64,000 nt of DNA from the NCBI GenBank assembly GCA_963779415.1, contig CAVZYA010000002.1, positions 320,001 to 384,000 of the forward strand. The letters are read 5' to 3'. Within the stretch, counting starts at the first letter, position 1; each line of letters opens with the position of its first letter. Positions 38,689 through 45,931 of this stretch are shown piece by piece. The DNA is from an uncultured Acidobacteriota bacterium. Lineage in GTDB: Bacteria > Acidobacteriota > Thermoanaerobaculia > UBA5066. Both the position numbers and the translations under genes were made by a program. The notes beneath the pieces were generated by a model, which was not told the origin of the DNA, did not search any database, and worked only from the letters and a program-made list of their open reading frames with translations.

Positions 38689-39108
38689 ATGAAGTCCTAC
38701 CGGAAAGTCCTGACGCTGAACGTTCCGAAGAGGATCGGCTTTCGGAACATCACCCCCGAGGTCGAAGCCGCCGTGAAGGAGAGCGGGGTGACGGAGGGTC
38801 TCTGCCTCGTCAACCCGATGCACATCACCGCGTCGGTCTTCGTGAACGACGACGAGCAGGGGCTCCACCGCGACTACGAGAGCTTCTTCGAGAGCCTCGT
38901 CCCGCATGAGCCCGTCGGGCAGTACCGCCACAACGACACGGGCGAGGAGAACGCCGACGCCCACATCAAGCGACAGCTGATGGGGCGCGAGGCCGTCGTC
39001 GCGATCACGAACGGCCGGCTCGATTTCGGGACCTGGGAACGGATCTTCTACGGCGAATGGGACGGCCGGAGGCCGAAGCGGATTCTCATAAAGGTCATCG
39101 GGGACTAG
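38689..39108 (+). CDS. YjbQ/UPF0047 family protein
   Basis: [33 protein letters not shown]. Confidence 0.88.
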
Positions 39109-41000
39109 CCCTTCCATCCCTCGGCTTCGAGCCCGAGGGTGATGAGCGCATCCGCGAGAACCGCCGCGCCGGGCGCATCGGCGCCAAGCGTCTCCTCGAA
39201 ACGGGCGCGGACCGTCGCTTCGCGCGCTTCGTCCCGGATCGGCCGGCCGCTCGCCCGCTTCGTCTCCGCGACCGCCCGGCAGAGGGCGAGGCGGCGCGAG
39301 ACGTTCCGCCCGATCTCGGCGTCCACCCGGTCGATGGCGCGGCGGACTCGCTCGACCGAGCCGCTCGGCCCCGGGAGAAAGCCGAACTCGTCGAGGAGCG
39401 CCTCGAGGTCCTCGGGAAGGAGCGCCTGTGGCCCGTCGCAAAGCGCGCTCTCGGGGACGTCATGCACCTCGATCATCAGGCCGTCGGCTCCCGCGCCCCA
39501 GGCCGCGCGCGCGAGGCCCGCCACCAGCTCGCGCCGCCCCGCCGCGTGCGACGGGTCGGCGAGGAGCGGAAGGTGCGTCAGGCCGCGTGCGACGAGGAGG
39601 CCGCCGAGATCGAGCGTGCCGCGCGTTGATTTCTCGAACGTCCGGATCCCCCGCTCGCAGAGCATGACGTCGCGGCTTCCCCCTTCGAGGACGTACTCCG
39701 CGGCGGCGAGCCACTCCTCCACCGTCGTTCCGAAACCGCGCTTGAGGAGCACCGGCCGCCCGCTCTTTCCCGCCTCGCGAAGGAGGTCGTAGTTCTGGCA
39801 GTTCCGCGCGCCGATCTGGAGGACGTCGGCCACCTCGGCCACCGGCCCGACCTGCGCGGGCGCCATCACCTCCGTCACGATCGGGAGTCCGACGGAATCC
39901 CCCGCCGCCTTCAGCCACGAGAGCGCCTCGAAGCCATGTCCCTGGAAGGCGTAGGGGCTCGTCCGCGGCTTGAAGACCCCTCCGCGAAGCGCCGTGGCCC
40001 CCGCGCGGGCCACTTCCCTGGCGAGGCGCATCACCTGGTCGGGAGACTCGACGGCGCAGGGGCCCGCGATGATGGCGCGGTGCCCCCCTCCGACGACGAA
40101 TCCCCTGACCGCGACCACGGTCGGCGGCCGGATCTCCGTGGCCTTTGGAAGGTCCTTCAGGTGGGGCGGCGGGACGTGGTCCGGCGTCGGCCCGAGCCAG
40201 ACGAGCGTCTCTCCCGTCCGGGCCTTCAACCCCGAGGCCTTCGAAACGGATCCGGCCGCGAGGACCGCGAAGCCGTGGACCGGCGTCTCCGGGCTCCCCG
40301 GCAGCGCCAGGATCTCGGCGCCCATCTCCGCGAGCCCGGCCGCGAGGCGGGCCCCGGCGAAGCGGAGGGCGCGGATCGAGGGCTCGACGTCGTGGCCGCT
40401 TTCCCGGAGGAGACGGAAGAACCGCGTCGCGTTCGGCCGGAGGTCGGAGACGTCCTCCTCCAGGATGACGAGTCCCGCTTCGAGCGCCGCCTCCTCGGCG
40501 CAGACCGCGGCGCGAGGGCCCCCGAGCGCTGCGACCCGCTGGGCCGCCTCGGCCGTGTCGTACGTCTCGAAGACGACCGCGTCGAGGCTTGCGAGGAGCT
40601 TCCCGCACTGCCGGAGGGCCGGAGGCTGCGACCAGACCTCCCGGATCCCCCGAAGCTCCACGCCGCGCGGAGCCGCAAGGACGAGCCGAACGGGAATCTC
40701 GATCTCGTCGGCGACGATGAGGCGCGCTCCCCCGGGCGCGAGGATTCGCGCGAGAGCCTCGAGCGGCTCGAGGATCGGCCCGGCAACTCGTGTCGCCGCC
40801 GGGATCACGGCCTCGTCCACCTCTCCGGCCGCGAGGGCGCGGAGGAGCCTGTCGAACGACGGATAGGGGACCGGCCGGCCGCAGCGGGCGGCGGCCCGGG
40901 CCGAGAACGAGCCGGGCTGTCCCTGATAGCCCGTGTTTGGGCTTGCCACCGGTGTCGTCGTGTCGTTCTCCCGGATGGTCTCGCTCATCGTCGCCTCCAC
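39105..41000 (-). CDS. Fusion: prephenate dehydratase-like domain + DAHP synthase (I-beta) + chorismate mutase (AroQ)
   Basis: [10 protein letters not shown]...ALRQC...NATRF (PDT); [36 protein letters not shown] (DAHPS); [11 protein letters not shown]...RR...K...IRD..RE (CM). Start 41000 (GTG) or 40988 (ATG). Confidence 0.88.
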
Positions 41001-42462: not shown

Positions 42463-42891
42463 GTGCCGGACCGGAAGTACCGTCAGAAGGGATATCAGGA
42501 CAACGCGCCGCACGCGCGGCGCAGCGACGCTTTCTCCGACGCCGGAAAGCGTCTCGAGGGGGCACCGAAAGGACGGGGCGCCGAGCGGAACCGCGACGAG
42601 GTCTTCCGCTGCAAGCTCTGCGGCGAGAAGAATGACTCCGAGGTGGCCGCCGCCTCCCTTTGCCGGAAGTGCCGGGCCCCCCTTCATGCCTGCAACCAAT
42701 GTCGTTTCTTCGACGGAGCGGCTCGCTGGCAATGCCGGGCCGAAATCCCCGCTCCGGTCGCCGCCAAGTCCAAGGCGAACGACTGCACGTTCTACGCCCC
42801 CGTCGTCACGCTTGACCTGACCGGCACGAAGTCCTCCGAGTCGCCGGACCAGGCCCGCGCAGCGTTCGACAAGCTCTTCGGGAAGCGTTAG
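42463..42891 (+). CDS. Cys-rich hypothetical protein (probable Zn/Fe-S binding)
   Basis: CKLC, CRKC, CNQC and further Cys; ends ARAAFDKLF. Confidence 0.7.
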   Translation: MPDRKYRQKGYQDNAPHARRSDAFSDAGKRLEGAPKGRGAERNRDEVFRCKLCGEKNDSEVAAASLCRKCRAPLHACNQCRFFDGAARWQCRAEIPAPVAAKSKANDCTFYAPVVTLDLTGTKSSESPDQARAAFDKLFGKR

Positions 42892-42931
42892 GAGGGGGTC
42901 CGGGGGAACACCGTTCCCCCGGCATCGGGGT

Positions 42932-43336
42932 TCAGGACCGGAGAGCTTCCACGATGCGACGGAGTGCGGCACCAACCTCGGCGCCGATGGGCGCGAGCGC
43001 GGGCTTCCCGACGACGGCCATGACGCTCTCCGGGTTCATCGCGCGGACGATGGTCTTTCCCCCCTCCACCGAGATCGTCACGTTGCAGGGGAGGAGGACC
43101 CCCGCCTCCGGGGCCGCCGAGAGGGCCTTGTGGGCCGACGACGGATGGCAGGCCCCGAGAATCAGGTACGGCGCGACGTCCACGTCCAGCTTCTTCTTGA
43201 ACGTCGCTTTGACGTCGATCTCCGTGATGACGCCGAAGCCCTCGGCGGCGAGAAGTTCCCGGGCGCGAGCGACGGCGTTCTCGAAGGAACGGGACGAGAC
43301 GGTTTCATACGCGACCGGGGAGGTGGAGACGCTCAT
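42932..43336 (-). CDS. DUF302 domain protein
   Basis: EGFGVITEIDV..TFKKKL, YLILGACHP, GVLLPCNV. Confidence 0.88.
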   Translation of the reverse strand: MSVSTSPVAYETVSSRSFENAVARARELLAAEGFGVITEIDVKATFKKKLDVDVAPYLILGACHPSSAHKALSAAPEAGVLLPCNVTISVEGGKTIVRAMNPESVMAVVGKPALAPIGAEVGAALRRIVEALRS

Positions 43337-43539
43337 CGGGGCTCCATCGGCGTCACGCTCTTTTCCGGGCCGCCTCCGGATGCCTCCTCCCTCTTCTCTC
43401 CCGTCCCTCCGCAGCCTCCCCGGCCCCCGGCCGGGTTCGGCACGGCTCACGTCGGGACGCCGAAGCGCGGAAGGACGACCGTCTGGAGCAGCCACCAGCC
43501 GGCGAGGAAGAGGGCGAAGCCGAGGAGATCTCCCGACAT
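43333..43539 (-). CDS. Putative small membrane selenoprotein (68 aa; in-frame UGA at codon 31, 43447-43449)
   Basis: MSGDLLGFALFLAGWWLLQTVVLPRFGVPT-UGA-AVPNPAGGRGGCGG...MEPR-stop; the second stop overlaps the DUF302 ATG (ATGA); SECIS-like hairpin after the UGA. Confidence 0.6.
43419..43435 (-). promoter_or_regulatory. Bacterial SECIS-like hairpin
   Basis: CCCGGCC-GGG-GGCCGGG beginning 11 nt 3' of the UGA; extendable by a GCC/GGC lower stem. Confidence 0.55.
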
Positions 43540-43713
43540 CGCCCTGACTGTCGCTCTTTAGCTGCGAAGAGTCAATGAAGTCCGGAGGGGGCGCGGAAGG
43601 GTACAGGGGGACGACGCGAGAGCGTCGTCGCCACCGGGTTCCCCGGCGGAACGATCTCGAACAAGCGAAAGCTCATTCGGAAGGCTCTCGGAAGCTGCGT
43701 GAACAGGTCGGCG

Positions 43714-44133
43714 AAAGCGATCGTAATGGGCATCCTCGAGCGCGGCGGGCGGGTCCGGACGAAGGTCGTTCCGGGCGCTACTGGGCCGACGCTCAGGGGC
43801 GAGTCCGAGCGGATCTCCAGCCTGTCGTGACGACCTACACGGATGCCCTGCCCTCCTATCGTGGGCTCGAATAGATGCTCCTTCACGACACCGTGAACCA
43901 CCTAGAACCCTACGTCCGTGGGCGGGTTCATACTCAGGGAATCGAGAATTTCTGGAGCGCTTGAAGCGGGTCCGGAAGGGAACCTTCGTCAACGCGGTGC
44001 CCGCGCACGTTGGCGCTTATGTGGACGAGCAGGCGTTCCGGTTCTACGAGCGTGAGAAGAATGATGTCGGGCGACACGCGGTGGGGCGGCGGCCATTGGC
44101 CGGAAGCGGCTCACGTACAAACAGCTCATTGCG
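43714..44133 (+). pseudogene. IS1595-family (ISXO2-like DDE) transposase remnant
   Basis: Fragments in shifting frames: KAIVMGILERGGRVRTKVVP, YTDALPSYRGL-stop, VNH...YVRGRVHTQGIENFWS, YVDEQAFRF, KRLTYKQLI. Confidence 0.85.
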
Positions 44134-44144
44134 GAGAGGCCAGC

Positions 44145-44324
44145 GTGGTAAGCGTCACCGGCAGAATCGCGGGAAGCGAAAGAAGACAGCCACCTCGAAG
44201 CGAGACGTCACCAAGGTTCGACACGCTTGAGGCCCGGACGAAGAAGATCCTGAGGGTGCCGAAGACGGGCGTCATCAAACTAGACGAGAAGAGATGGGCG
44301 AAAGAGCAAAGGAGACGTCGATGA
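44145..44324 (+). CDS. Small basic hypothetical protein downstream of the transposase
   Basis: GTG with upstream GGAGAGG; FDTL...KKILRVPK; stop overlaps the next ATG. Confidence 0.4.
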   Translation: MVSVTGRIAGSERRQPPRSETSPRFDTLEARTKKILRVPKTGVIKLDEKRWAKEQRRRR

Positions 44325-44845
44325 GCGCAGAGACCGTCCTCTCCGATTATGAGTTAGCTCGCTGTATGGCCGGAATCGAGGCGGTAGATCGGCTCGGGAA
44401 GCCAGTTTTCGAAATAGGGGGAAAACTGCTGAAGAGTCGCGTCGAGGCAGTGCATCTCCGCCGTGAACTCAGATGTCTGGCGAATGGAAGCCATCTTCGA
44501 AGTTACGTCCTTATTGACGATGATGGATGGGCTCGTTTCGGTTTCTTCCGAGAAGCTTGGGTGAAGAATGCGTTGCGCTTTCTGGAAGAAGAGGGCGGCA
44601 GCCTGAAGGAGCGAGACCTCGCGTGGATACAGGGGCTCCTCTTCGGTTACCGCCCCGAGAGTATTAGGAACTACCTACGTGCTAGTTCTGCGTCTGCCGA
44701 ACCAGCACCCAGGTTACGGCGAAACGGCAACGCCGTTTGCACGGCGGAAACGTCTCGCCGCGCGAGAGAGCGATCTGCTCGTTGCAGCATGCCGCCAAGT
44801 AGATTCCGCTCTGCGCACACTTCTGACCAGTCGTTCCGGACATAA
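44321..44845 (+). CDS. Hypothetical IS passenger protein
   Basis: SD AAGGAG before ATG 44321; globular part ends near WIQGLLFGYRPESIRNYL; the tail overlaps an antisense gene. Confidence 0.6.
   Translation: MSAETVLSDYELARCMAGIEAVDRLGKPVFEIGGKLLKSRVEAVHLRRELRCLANGSHLRSYVLIDDDGWARFGFFREAWVKNALRFLEEEGGSLKERDLAWIQGLLFGYRPESIRNYLRASSASAEPAPRLRRNGNAVCTAETSRRARERSARCSMPPSRFRSAHTSDQSFRT
44682..44843 (-). CDS. YjzC-like zinc-ribbon microprotein (53 aa), missing from the ORF track
   Basis: MSGTTGQKCAQSGIYLAACCNEQIALSRGETFPPCKRRCRFAVTWVLVRQTQN; SD GAGGGA; TG....SG.Y...GE.FPPC...W.LV pattern. Confidence 0.75.
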   Translation of the reverse strand: MSGTTGQKCAQSGIYLAACCNEQIALSRGETFPPCKRRCRFAVTWVLVRQTQN

Positions 44846-45150
44846 ATCCCTCATTGCTCCAAACGGAGCTTAAGAAAGTGGGATCGCCCTTGCGGATCGG
44901 GTCACGATGCCGTACTGTACGGCTTGCTCAATAACGTGCCCTAGAGGCGGGCGACCCCGCCCTGCCCCCGAGCCGTGACCCTTTCTGGAGGGTTCACGGC
45001 TCGTCCTTTCTACTGATAGTCGCGCCTTGGTGGCGCTCTGATTCGGGTCACCTCTTCATTCCCACCTCCGTTTCATGGACCCTCGGGGAGACGATCCCCG
45101 CGGATCGGGATCCAGAATCCCGTCCCGGCCACCACGGCAAGGCCCCCTGC

Positions 45151-45543
45151 TCAGCCGACAAGCGATGCCTGCACTTCGGGTTCTCGCGCAACGGCGAGGC
45201 GGTATCGACCCCGTCGCACCTTCTTTAGGATCTTCTTGTCGGTCAGACGAAACACTGTCGAGCGGAAAGAACGAAGGTTGCCGGCTCCGATCTTCTTGGC
45301 CAGATCCTTCGCCGACATCTCGCCTCGGGGTTCTCCGGCGAGAGTCCTAAGAATCCTATCGGCTACGCTGCCTTCCTTCACGGCGAATTGCGGCGGCTCA
45401 TTATGGGGCTCCGCCGCGGGAGAGGGATGTTCGCTGCCGCCGACCAGCCTATTAAGCTCTTCCTCAGCCTTTCGGAGTGCCTGGCGGAGTCTGATCACCT
45501 CGGCTCCCAGGGCCACGGCGCATTCGGCCTTCGAGTTCAGCAT
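45151..45543 (-). CDS. Coiled-coil plus winged-helix putative DNA-binding protein
   Basis: N-terminal LRQALRKAEEELNRL; C-terminal SAKDLAKKI...FRSTVFRL...VRRGRYRL; TTGACT-18-TACTTA promoter-like sequence at 45551-45580. Confidence 0.65.
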   Translation of the reverse strand: MLNSKAECAVALGAEVIRLRQALRKAEEELNRLVGGSEHPSPAAEPHNEPPQFAVKEGSVADRILRTLAGEPRGEMSAKDLAKKIGAGNLRSFRSTVFRLTDKKILKKVRRGRYRLAVAREPEVQASLVG

Positions 45544-45643
45544 GGAGGATTAAGTACCACGAAGGCATCACGGAAGTCAACACGCCGTAAGAAAGGCGTG
45601 CCTCCCTTGGCCGGAACTTTCGTGGAGCATCCGGCGGAGCATC

Positions 45644-45850
45644 TCAGCTGGGCATTTCCGCCCAGTGGCTCACGTGGAGAAGAACGATCTGGGAGGGTTG
45701 TCCCTTCACGACTTCTCTGAATTTCTTGTCCGCGCCGAAGATCGCGAAGGCGGCTCGCTGCTCAGGTTCAAGAACAAAGACCACTACCTGTTCGTCCGAC
45801 TCCGGCTTGGTCGCCGGAAAGGGATTCCAGTTTGACGGCTGTGTCTTCAT
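45644..45850 (-). CDS. Small hypothetical protein
   Basis: 68 aa; SD GGAGGA; W.P...KP...V...VSHWAEMP pattern reminiscent of phage DUF551-type proteins. Confidence 0.5.
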   Translation of the reverse strand: MKTQPSNWNPFPATKPESDEQVVVFVLEPEQRAAFAIFGADKKFREVVKGQPSQIVLLHVSHWAEMPS

Positions 45851-45931
45851 TTCGCAGGTCCTCCCGGAAACGTATTCGAGAGCATCGACCGGTTAGTCAA
45901 GAATGTTGATGCTGGGTTCCCCGGATCCATT

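Follow-up and report, generated by a model that had tools for sequence, protein, structure and literature searches.

A putative membrane-anchored micro-selenoprotein encoded upstream of a DUF302 gene in an uncultured Acidobacteriota bacterium

The textbook bacterial gene for a selenoprotein that depends on a selenocysteine insertion sequence (SECIS) is fdhF of Escherichia coli. In eukaryotes, SELENOK and SELENOS are small single-pass membrane proteins whose disordered cytosolic tail, made of Gly, Pro, and charged residues, bears selenocysteine (Sec) at its extreme C terminus, with the SECIS located in the 3' untranslated region. Here, we analyzed a 64,000-nucleotide (nt) stretch of DNA, hereafter the window, from an uncultured Acidobacteriota bacterium (assembly GCA_963779415.1, contig CAVZYA010000002.1, positions 320,001 to 384,000), in which a small gene on the minus strand, interrupted by an in-frame UGA and running into a DUF302 gene, very probably encodes a 68-residue selenoprotein of a widespread family of small membrane proteins. 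The likeness of this microprotein to SELENOK and SELENOS is one of description, with no kinship in sequence expected; unlike theirs, its Sec would abut the membrane and its SECIS would lie in frame. The fdhA and selD genes of the same genome (G000; three contigs, 4.36 Mb) share with it an in-frame UGA, an 11-nt spacer, a hairpin of 6 to 8 bp within the coding sequence, the existence of Cys homologs, and an occurrence tied to selA, whereas the micro gene is far smaller (68 aa), has its Sec codon right after a transmembrane (TM) helix, and carries a GGG instead of a GUC loop.

A May 2026 review gives 119 prokaryotic selenoprotein families with model accessions in its Table 1 (PMC13188914), and that table holds neither a single-helix membrane protein nor a PT-U-x4-C motif (U, Sec). 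Nearest in kind among its entries are TsoA (LULAxC motif, NF045695), a dual-CXXC small protein (NF041197), and KCU-star/DUF466 (NF033934), which like the microprotein are short and defined by a Sec/Cys motif together with a gene neighborhood; unlike them, the microprotein is marked by PT-U-x4-C following a TM helix, and it has no homology to any listed selenoprotein family. The families of Haft and Tolstoy (2025), compared through the NCBIfam accessions given in the same table, include no match to it. Passages from the Haft 2022 preprint and from the papers on deep-Sep and BSepDB mention nothing similar, although supplements may carry such an entry, and literature searches linking a selenoprotein with DUF302, DUF2892 with DUF302, or YgaP with selenocysteine returned nothing relevant. 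In the June 2026 release, no Pfam (E ≤ 0.1) or NCBIfam (E ≤ 1) model matched the Sec form with U read as Cys, and none rose above noise for 10 Cys forms. The Protein Data Bank holds no relative of the microprotein, and the nearest entry in the ESM Atlas is an unnamed 56-aa cluster from Planctomycetota (score, 0.84). As far as these searches show, the family has so far not been described. YgaP-like TM proteins (PF11127, DUF2892) resemble it in being small membrane proteins with a conserved Cys, theirs in a WCP motif. Membership in PF11127 itself was ruled out, as the microprotein has no match to that model, which instead describes a neighboring gene of the family; a resemblance to FeoB-associated Cys-rich membrane proteins was likewise dropped for want of a Pfam match.

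The locus and its codon 31

The features of the locus, all on the minus strand, are as follows.

43450..43539, minus strand: 30-codon open reading frame (ORF) with one TM helix and the motif LPRFGVPT; ATG start at 43539-43537; the segment kept in relatives
43447..43449, minus strand: in-frame TGA, the proposed Sec31 codon, aligned with the invariant Cys of the Cys forms
43436..43446, minus strand: 11-nt spacer between UGA and hairpin
43419..43435, minus strand: SECIS-like hairpin CCCGGCC-GGG-GGCCGGG (5' arm 43435-43429, loop GGG 43428-43426, 3' arm 43425-43419), a perfect stem of 7 bp
43336..43446, minus strand: 37-codon extension after the proposed Sec, reading AVPNPAGGRGG-Cys43 and then a charged, disordered tail
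43333..43335, minus strand: second, terminal TGA, overlapping the DUF302 start codon (ATG at 43336-43334) as ATGA
42932..43336, minus strand: DUF302 gene, 134 aa (Pfam PF03625, E = 3.5e-21)

The gene is absent from the annotation track. Its first 30 codons encode MSGDLLGFALFLAGWWLLQTVVLPRFGVPT, the extension translates as AVPNPAGGRGGCGGTGEKREEASGGGPEKSVTPMEPR with the Cys43 codon TGC at 43413-43411, and the sequence directly 3' of the hairpin is GAGGCUGC. The DUF302 gene has a GGAG of its own, 7 nt upstream of its ATG. Thus, everything that the initial annotation had reported at this place was recovered: the hidden ORF with one TM helix ending in LPRFGVPT before a UGA, the 37 further open codons with a Cys and a second stop overlapping the DUF302 start, and the 7-bp stem with a G-rich loop beginning 11 nt past the UGA. 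In DNA with a G+C content of 68 to 69%, a single open frame with a hairpin is weak evidence, so that comparative data were needed to decide.

A six-frame search with the 30-aa peptide against 40 relatives and the genome itself (E ≤ 10) matched 26 of the 41 genomes. In all 20 loci from relatives, TGA directly follows L(P)(R/K)LGV(P)T, and another 23 to 45 codons are open beyond it. A profile built from these 20 sequences (A1, with U read as C) found members in 125 of 401 genomes of a phylum sample at E ≤ 0.01, and nearly all matches spanning position 31 hold one TGA. At the aligned codon, the 70 loci obtained by protein-similarity searches (67 distinct) have TGA in 66 cases and TGT in one (G394). 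The initial annotation had held that homologs ending in UAA or UAG would speak against Sec; none of the 67 has TAA or TAG, in a genome background where TGA makes up 69% of the stops of long ORFs.

Homologs with Cys in place of the UGA, whose absence would also have counted against the proposal, are plentiful both in the protein database and in metagenomes. Against 1.84 billion representative proteins, the profile gave 802 matches at E ≤ 1e-3, which fall into two classes, proteins of 29 to 30 aa that end at T30 and read-through proteins of 44 to 90 aa. When 46 fetched proteins were read by eye, Cys31 was present in 29, mostly as LG(V/I)PT-C-MSG(G/A)-C, with W in seven, G in three, and R in two, the others ending at T30; the W, G, and R cases (P0002, P0005, P0009, P0019, P0037, P0047, P0079, and others) could be calls made under a genetic code in which TGA means Trp or Gly, or one-step point mutants of TGA. 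Thermogutta terrifontis has a Cys form listed as a "hypothetical protein." Two Cys-form alignments (25 and 26 sequences) show Cys31 to be invariant and the pair C31 and C36 to be invariant or nearly so.

Further loci were collected from metagenomes and species genomes with degenerate DNA patterns. The metagenome scan yielded 80 loci, 73 of them family members with TGC or TGT. The species-genome scan, whose pattern demanded TGA, also yielded 80 loci, and its 76 members are informative on the hairpin and not on the codon. By record title, these 76 comprise 41 from Acidobacteriota classes, 14 that are delta-proteobacterial or myxobacterial, and 21 others, including Planctomycetes, Armatimonadota, Nitrospirae, Spirochaetes, Gemmatimonadota, KSB1, Zixibacteria, Latescibacteria, and Rokubacteria; one cultured carrier among the Sec loci is Geomobilimonas luticola JCM 17780. 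Altogether, the family spans at least 15 phylum-level labels. Judged by the named relatives closest to it, the organism studied here probably belongs to the class Thermoanaerobaculia of the Acidobacteriota.

The UGA form goes with the Sec pathway. Comparing the phylum-sample tables by hand, selA was found in 106 of the 108 UGA-form genomes versus 195 of the 293 others (301 of 401 overall). Of the UGA-form genomes, two have no selA match, namely G267 (95% complete) and G365 (64% complete); nor has the only Cys-form genome of the sample, G394 (99% complete). These tallies include unpublished genomes (G025 for the profile; G025, G088, and G190 for selA), on which no individual claim rests.

Past the UGA, all 140 Sec loci scored (the 141st ran off its locus) keep the frame open for 15 codons or more, with a median of 27 codons; each of the other two frames is open to that extent in fewer loci (118 and 90 of 140). 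Family members are bitopic proteins of 45 to 90 aa with a short acidic N terminus, one TM helix, and LP(R/K)LG(V/I)PT, with Sec or Cys as the very next residue. Among the 206 distinct members (141 Sec and 65 Cys), the next Cys lies at +5 from U/C31 in 131 and at +10 to +15 in the clade of the window, and it is the last or penultimate residue in 12. An AlphaFold (AF2) model of the window protein predicts a helix over residues 3 to 25 with a confidence (pLDDT) of about 90. Mean flanking charges (0.28 K+R and 0.92 D+E on the N-terminal side; 3.86 K+R on the C-terminal side) point, by the positive-inside rule, to an N-out/C-in topology. Sec31 would then lie where the helix emerges on the cytoplasmic side, and its partner Cys would be carried by the flexible tail beyond.

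The hairpin as a SECIS candidate and the proposed decoding of UGA31

A hairpin was counted as positioned when a stem of at least 6 bp lay within 48 nt downstream of the codon and its apical loop started 17 to 24 nt after it. By this definition, 110 of the 141 Sec forms have one (50 of the 67 with U-x4-C and 60 of the remaining 74) versus 8 of 65 Cys forms, while some stem of at least 6 bp anywhere in those 48 nt occurs in 33 of the 65 Cys forms. Median folding z-scores are -1.18 for U-x4-C, -0.49 for other Sec, and -0.17 for Cys forms (U-x4-C versus Cys, Mann-Whitney p = 3e-8), statistics that overstate independence because the sequences share ancestry.

Base pairing is also maintained through substitution. 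In the clade of the window (42 sequences, gap-free alignment), the 7-bp helix has 87.5% of its cells paired and shows compensatory changes in five of seven pairs (49 cells); its covariation score is 0.445 versus a shuffle mean of 0.127, which none of 500 shuffles lifts to that value, and pairings slid along the sequence give at most 0.161. The U-x4-C clade (67 sequences) has an 8-bp helix with 64.4% paired and a score of 0.405 versus 0.195 (0 of 500; slid, at most 0.228). Hence, the conservation of the hairpin, which the initial annotation had set as a test, is borne out by compensatory changes in the Sec forms and by its being largely missing from the Cys forms. Some acidobacterial-type Cys forms (C-MSGAC-NVAARRKR; e.g., L231, L243, L249, and L267) still have a partial hairpin at the SECIS position, which suggests recent Sec-to-Cys replacement.

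The loops of relatives read GGCG, GGUG, GGUC, and GGGC. As for the two other candidate SECIS elements of this genome, that of fdhA has an 11-nt spacer, an 8-bp stem, and a GUC loop, and that of selD an 11-nt spacer, a 6-bp stem, and a GUC loop. The two genes hold one in-frame TGA each (fdhA, C1:241385-244453, 1363.5 bits; selD, C2:866668-867636, 347.8 bits). Moreover, selA is present in a single frame (439.7 bits; cut-off, 267.9), and a tRNA-Sec scores 66.1 bits, with ARAGORN calling it tRNA-SeC with anticodon TCA.

As read from these elements, the decoding mechanism would be ordinary bacterial Sec insertion: SelB-GTP-Sec-tRNA(Sec) would bind the hairpin and insert Sec at UGA31, and translation would then proceed as far as the second UGA, at the overlap with the DUF302 start. 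The membrane-anchored 68-aa peptide with a Sec...Cys pair that the initial annotation had proposed is thereby supported by comparison of codon, Cys homologs, and hairpin. For the family as a whole, we hold the selenoprotein reading to be even more secure than for the window itself, whose gene we nonetheless consider very likely to encode such a protein.

Points against and alternative readings

Several observations weigh against this reading, besides the shared ancestry of the sequences and the selection of 76 loci by a pattern that demanded TGA. The helix was specified by the analyst and its pairs were counted on gap-free sub-alignments grouped by geometry; RNAalifold predicted no structure for 74 Sec-form segments aligned plainly with MAFFT, because loops of 3 to 5 nt fall out of register in that alignment. 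When the U-x4-C structure is imposed on 64 Cys forms, a weak residual pairing appears (47.6% paired; 0.250 versus 0.182; slid, at most 0.216), which is perhaps a trace of recent Sec-to-Cys switches. The GGG loop of the window lacks the U of the GUC loops of fdhA and selD, and in 43200-43700, Rfam at E ≤ 10 turned up nothing beyond a chance match to a long noncoding RNA. On the protein side, everything after the helix is predicted to be disordered in the AF2 model, G+C by codon position in the tail (0.67/0.60/0.71 versus 0.65/0.39/0.80 in the N-terminal part) shows weak periodicity, and 14 of the 141 Sec forms have no downstream Cys, a situation that does not occur among Cys forms.

A caveat concerns selB. 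Of the Sec machinery named by the initial annotation, selA, selD, and tRNA-Sec were found, along with the UGA-containing fdhA, and selB is present but has its frame broken twice in this assembly. At C2:454600-456530, it lies in three frames with two changes, in pieces of 169.7, 107.5, and 22.5 bits, none of which reaches the 242-bit cut-off. If these frameshifts are real, UGA31 goes undecoded in this organism, and the micro gene would be a relic from a true selenoprotein family in which UGA31 now terminates translation, leaving the 30-aa anchor or nothing useful. Such decay is made plausible by the single frames of rpoB and rpoC (about 8.5 kb), fdhA, selA, and nrd in the same assembly, by a selB that is whole, in a single frame and above the cut-off, in four of five same-genus genomes, and by contigs of related populations (94 to 97% alike) that have one base fewer at each selB junction (places 2033 and 1458). 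The FAD-dependent oxidoreductase gene adjacent upstream of selB is itself switched in frame several times, which hints at a consensus that is poor in this region more than at decay confined to selB; in addition, selD and fdhA retain their UGA and intact SECIS hairpins, and the micro gene retains its perfect 7-bp stem. Sequencing runs were scanned for the selB locus, the best sharing 0.16 of the sampled words, and no run with reads of this strain, nor any RNA run containing the locus, was found. We regard the loss of decoding as improbable; whether UGA31 is decoded in this particular organism depends on the true state of selB.

It is far less probable still that the gene truly ends at UGA as a 30-aa membrane peptide, with the hairpin acting as a regulatory or mRNA-stabilizing element for the downstream gene. 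The N-terminal 30 aa are indeed the best-conserved part, gene callers do report proteins of 29 to 30 aa, and the tail is poorly conserved with the weak codon periodicity described above. Nevertheless, the Cys-codon homologs run on in frame to an invariant second Cys, the stop is never TAA or TAG, most Cys forms have no hairpin, and carriers are nearly confined to selA-positive genomes. The hairpin is not followed by a U-tract, which also ruled out its identity as an intrinsic terminator or attenuator; no terminator-like site was found in 42800-43800, and a promoter scan gave no sigma-70-like site. A chance ORF beside a chance GC-rich hairpin, in DNA of 69% G+C where both open frames and GC hairpins are common and where half of the Cys forms (33 of 65) carry some stem of at least 6 bp, can be considered refuted, as peptide, TGA, spacing, and hairpin are all kept across many phyla. 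The selenoprotein reading remains the one we favor for this locus.

Gene neighborhood, possible function, and significance

All ORFs of the 206 distinct loci were clustered, and cluster representatives were scanned against Pfam; the flanks covered measured 1.5 kb in most of the Sec loci and 0.6 kb in the Cys loci. At least one of the following 10 neighbor types occurs in 141 of the 206 loci.

YgaP-like TM (PF11127): 30 of 141 Sec loci, 31 of 65 Cys loci
DUF302 (downstream, same strand): 36 of 141 Sec loci, 8 of 65 Cys loci
zf-HC2 anti-sigma: 8 of 141 Sec loci, 27 of 65 Cys loci
ArsR helix-turn-helix: 26 of 141 Sec loci (directly upstream), 1 of 65 Cys loci
Thioredoxin: 14 of 141 Sec loci, 12 of 65 Cys loci
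AcrB-type (RND) pump: 20 of 141 Sec loci, 4 of 65 Cys loci
FmdB zinc ribbon: 18 of 141 Sec loci, 0 of 65 Cys loci
DUF6132: 1 of 141 Sec loci, 10 of 65 Cys loci
DsbD_TM: 2 of 141 Sec loci, 8 of 65 Cys loci
MBL+rhodanese: 7 of 141 Sec loci, 1 of 65 Cys loci

The most frequent same-strand neighbor is thus not DUF302 but the YgaP-like TM protein (61 of 206), common to Sec and Cys forms, and in several Cys loci the stop of the micro gene and the start of the YgaP-like gene share one base. In the window and its genus, DUF302 is the only neighbor kept, the two PF11127 genes of this genome being located elsewhere, away from the micro gene. Overlaps of the NTGA type, in which the second stop shares bases with a start codon, recur in 52 of the 140 Sec loci; 22 of these have a downstream ORF of at least 60 aa. 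This recurrence makes translational coupling plausible. The selenium dependence of DUF302 translation suggested by the initial annotation is conjectural; DUF302 adjoins the gene in only 36 of the 141 Sec loci.

Several side observations concern the surroundings of the gene. In three relatives (L071, L178, and L179), the frame after UGA continues stop-free into an FmdB-type zinc ribbon (MPxYEYRC...), either as fusion proteins or through the chance absence of a stop; FmdB-family proteins are among the selenoproteins in the 2026 review (UxxU; PMC13188914). Directly upstream of the micro gene, positions 43560-45900 have a G+C content of 0.59 to 0.63 against about 0.70 around them and hold weak, fragmented matches to IS1595/ISXO2 transposases (43699-43964, E = 0.005 to 0.009) as well as ORFs without a family; this stretch seems to have taken the place of the ArsR and YgaP-like genes that other members of the family have upstream. 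A Cys-rich ORF of 142 aa (42463-42891, plus strand), which runs toward the DUF302 gene, has zinc-ribbon matches that are all subthreshold (best E = 0.0012). Farther along, a 631-aa protein (39105-41000, minus strand) carries domains for prephenate dehydratase, DAHP synthase, and chorismate mutase (PF00800, PF00793, and PF01817).

The recurrence of thioredoxin, ArsR, anti-sigma, and YgaP-like neighbors suggests a membrane selenol/thiol relay. We tentatively propose, with somewhat less than even confidence, that the microprotein may serve as a membrane-anchored selenol/thiol (selenenylsulfide) relay in a response to thiol, reactive-sulfur, or soft-metal stress, probably together with the YgaP-like two-helix protein. 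The proposal is based on gene neighborhood, and in the window the usual upstream neighbors have been replaced by a decayed mobile element, which counts against applying it there. A complex prediction between a YgaP-like TM protein (residues 1 to 68) and a Cys-form microprotein (residues 1 to 48), with alignments of 26 rows each, scored 0.01 against a mark of 0.32.

A function of the U/C...C pair in binding soft metals or metalloids (Hg, Cd, Cu(I), or As(III)) or selenium itself, for resistance or trafficking and not as a redox relay, appears unlikely. It would fit the ArsR-family regulator directly upstream of 26 of the 141 Sec loci and the AcrB-type RND pump near 20 of them. ArsR-family sensors include persulfide sensors, however, and the neighbors common to Sec and Cys forms (YgaP-like TM, thioredoxin, DsbD_TM, zinc-finger anti-sigma, and MBL+rhodanese) indicate thiol or sulfur chemistry. 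Metal-handling selenoproteins are known, with MerT-like, HgcA, and MbdU entries in the review's Table 1 (PMC13188914).

Beyond the relay, a bolder and rather doubtful extension is that the micro-selenoprotein might be the selenol-bearing subunit of an unrecognized two-component membrane module with the YgaP-like protein, a module that would handle sulfane sulfur, selenium, or reducing equivalents, passing them on at the cytoplasmic membrane or through it. Given the frequent overlap of the Sec gene with a downstream gene, expression of the partner (here, DUF302) would in that proposal be gated by selenium supply.

Bacterial selenoproteomes are still being assembled one family at a time. If our reading is true, it adds a selenoprotein family that gene callers shorten to 29 to 30 aa or miss altogether, and, to judge from our searches, no bacterial micro-selenoprotein with a single membrane helix would have been described before it. 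It would also provide a functional lead on the poorly understood YgaP-like TM (DUF2892) and DUF302 proteins, and the alternation of Sec and Cys at the membrane interface would constitute a natural experiment on why Sec is preferred there.

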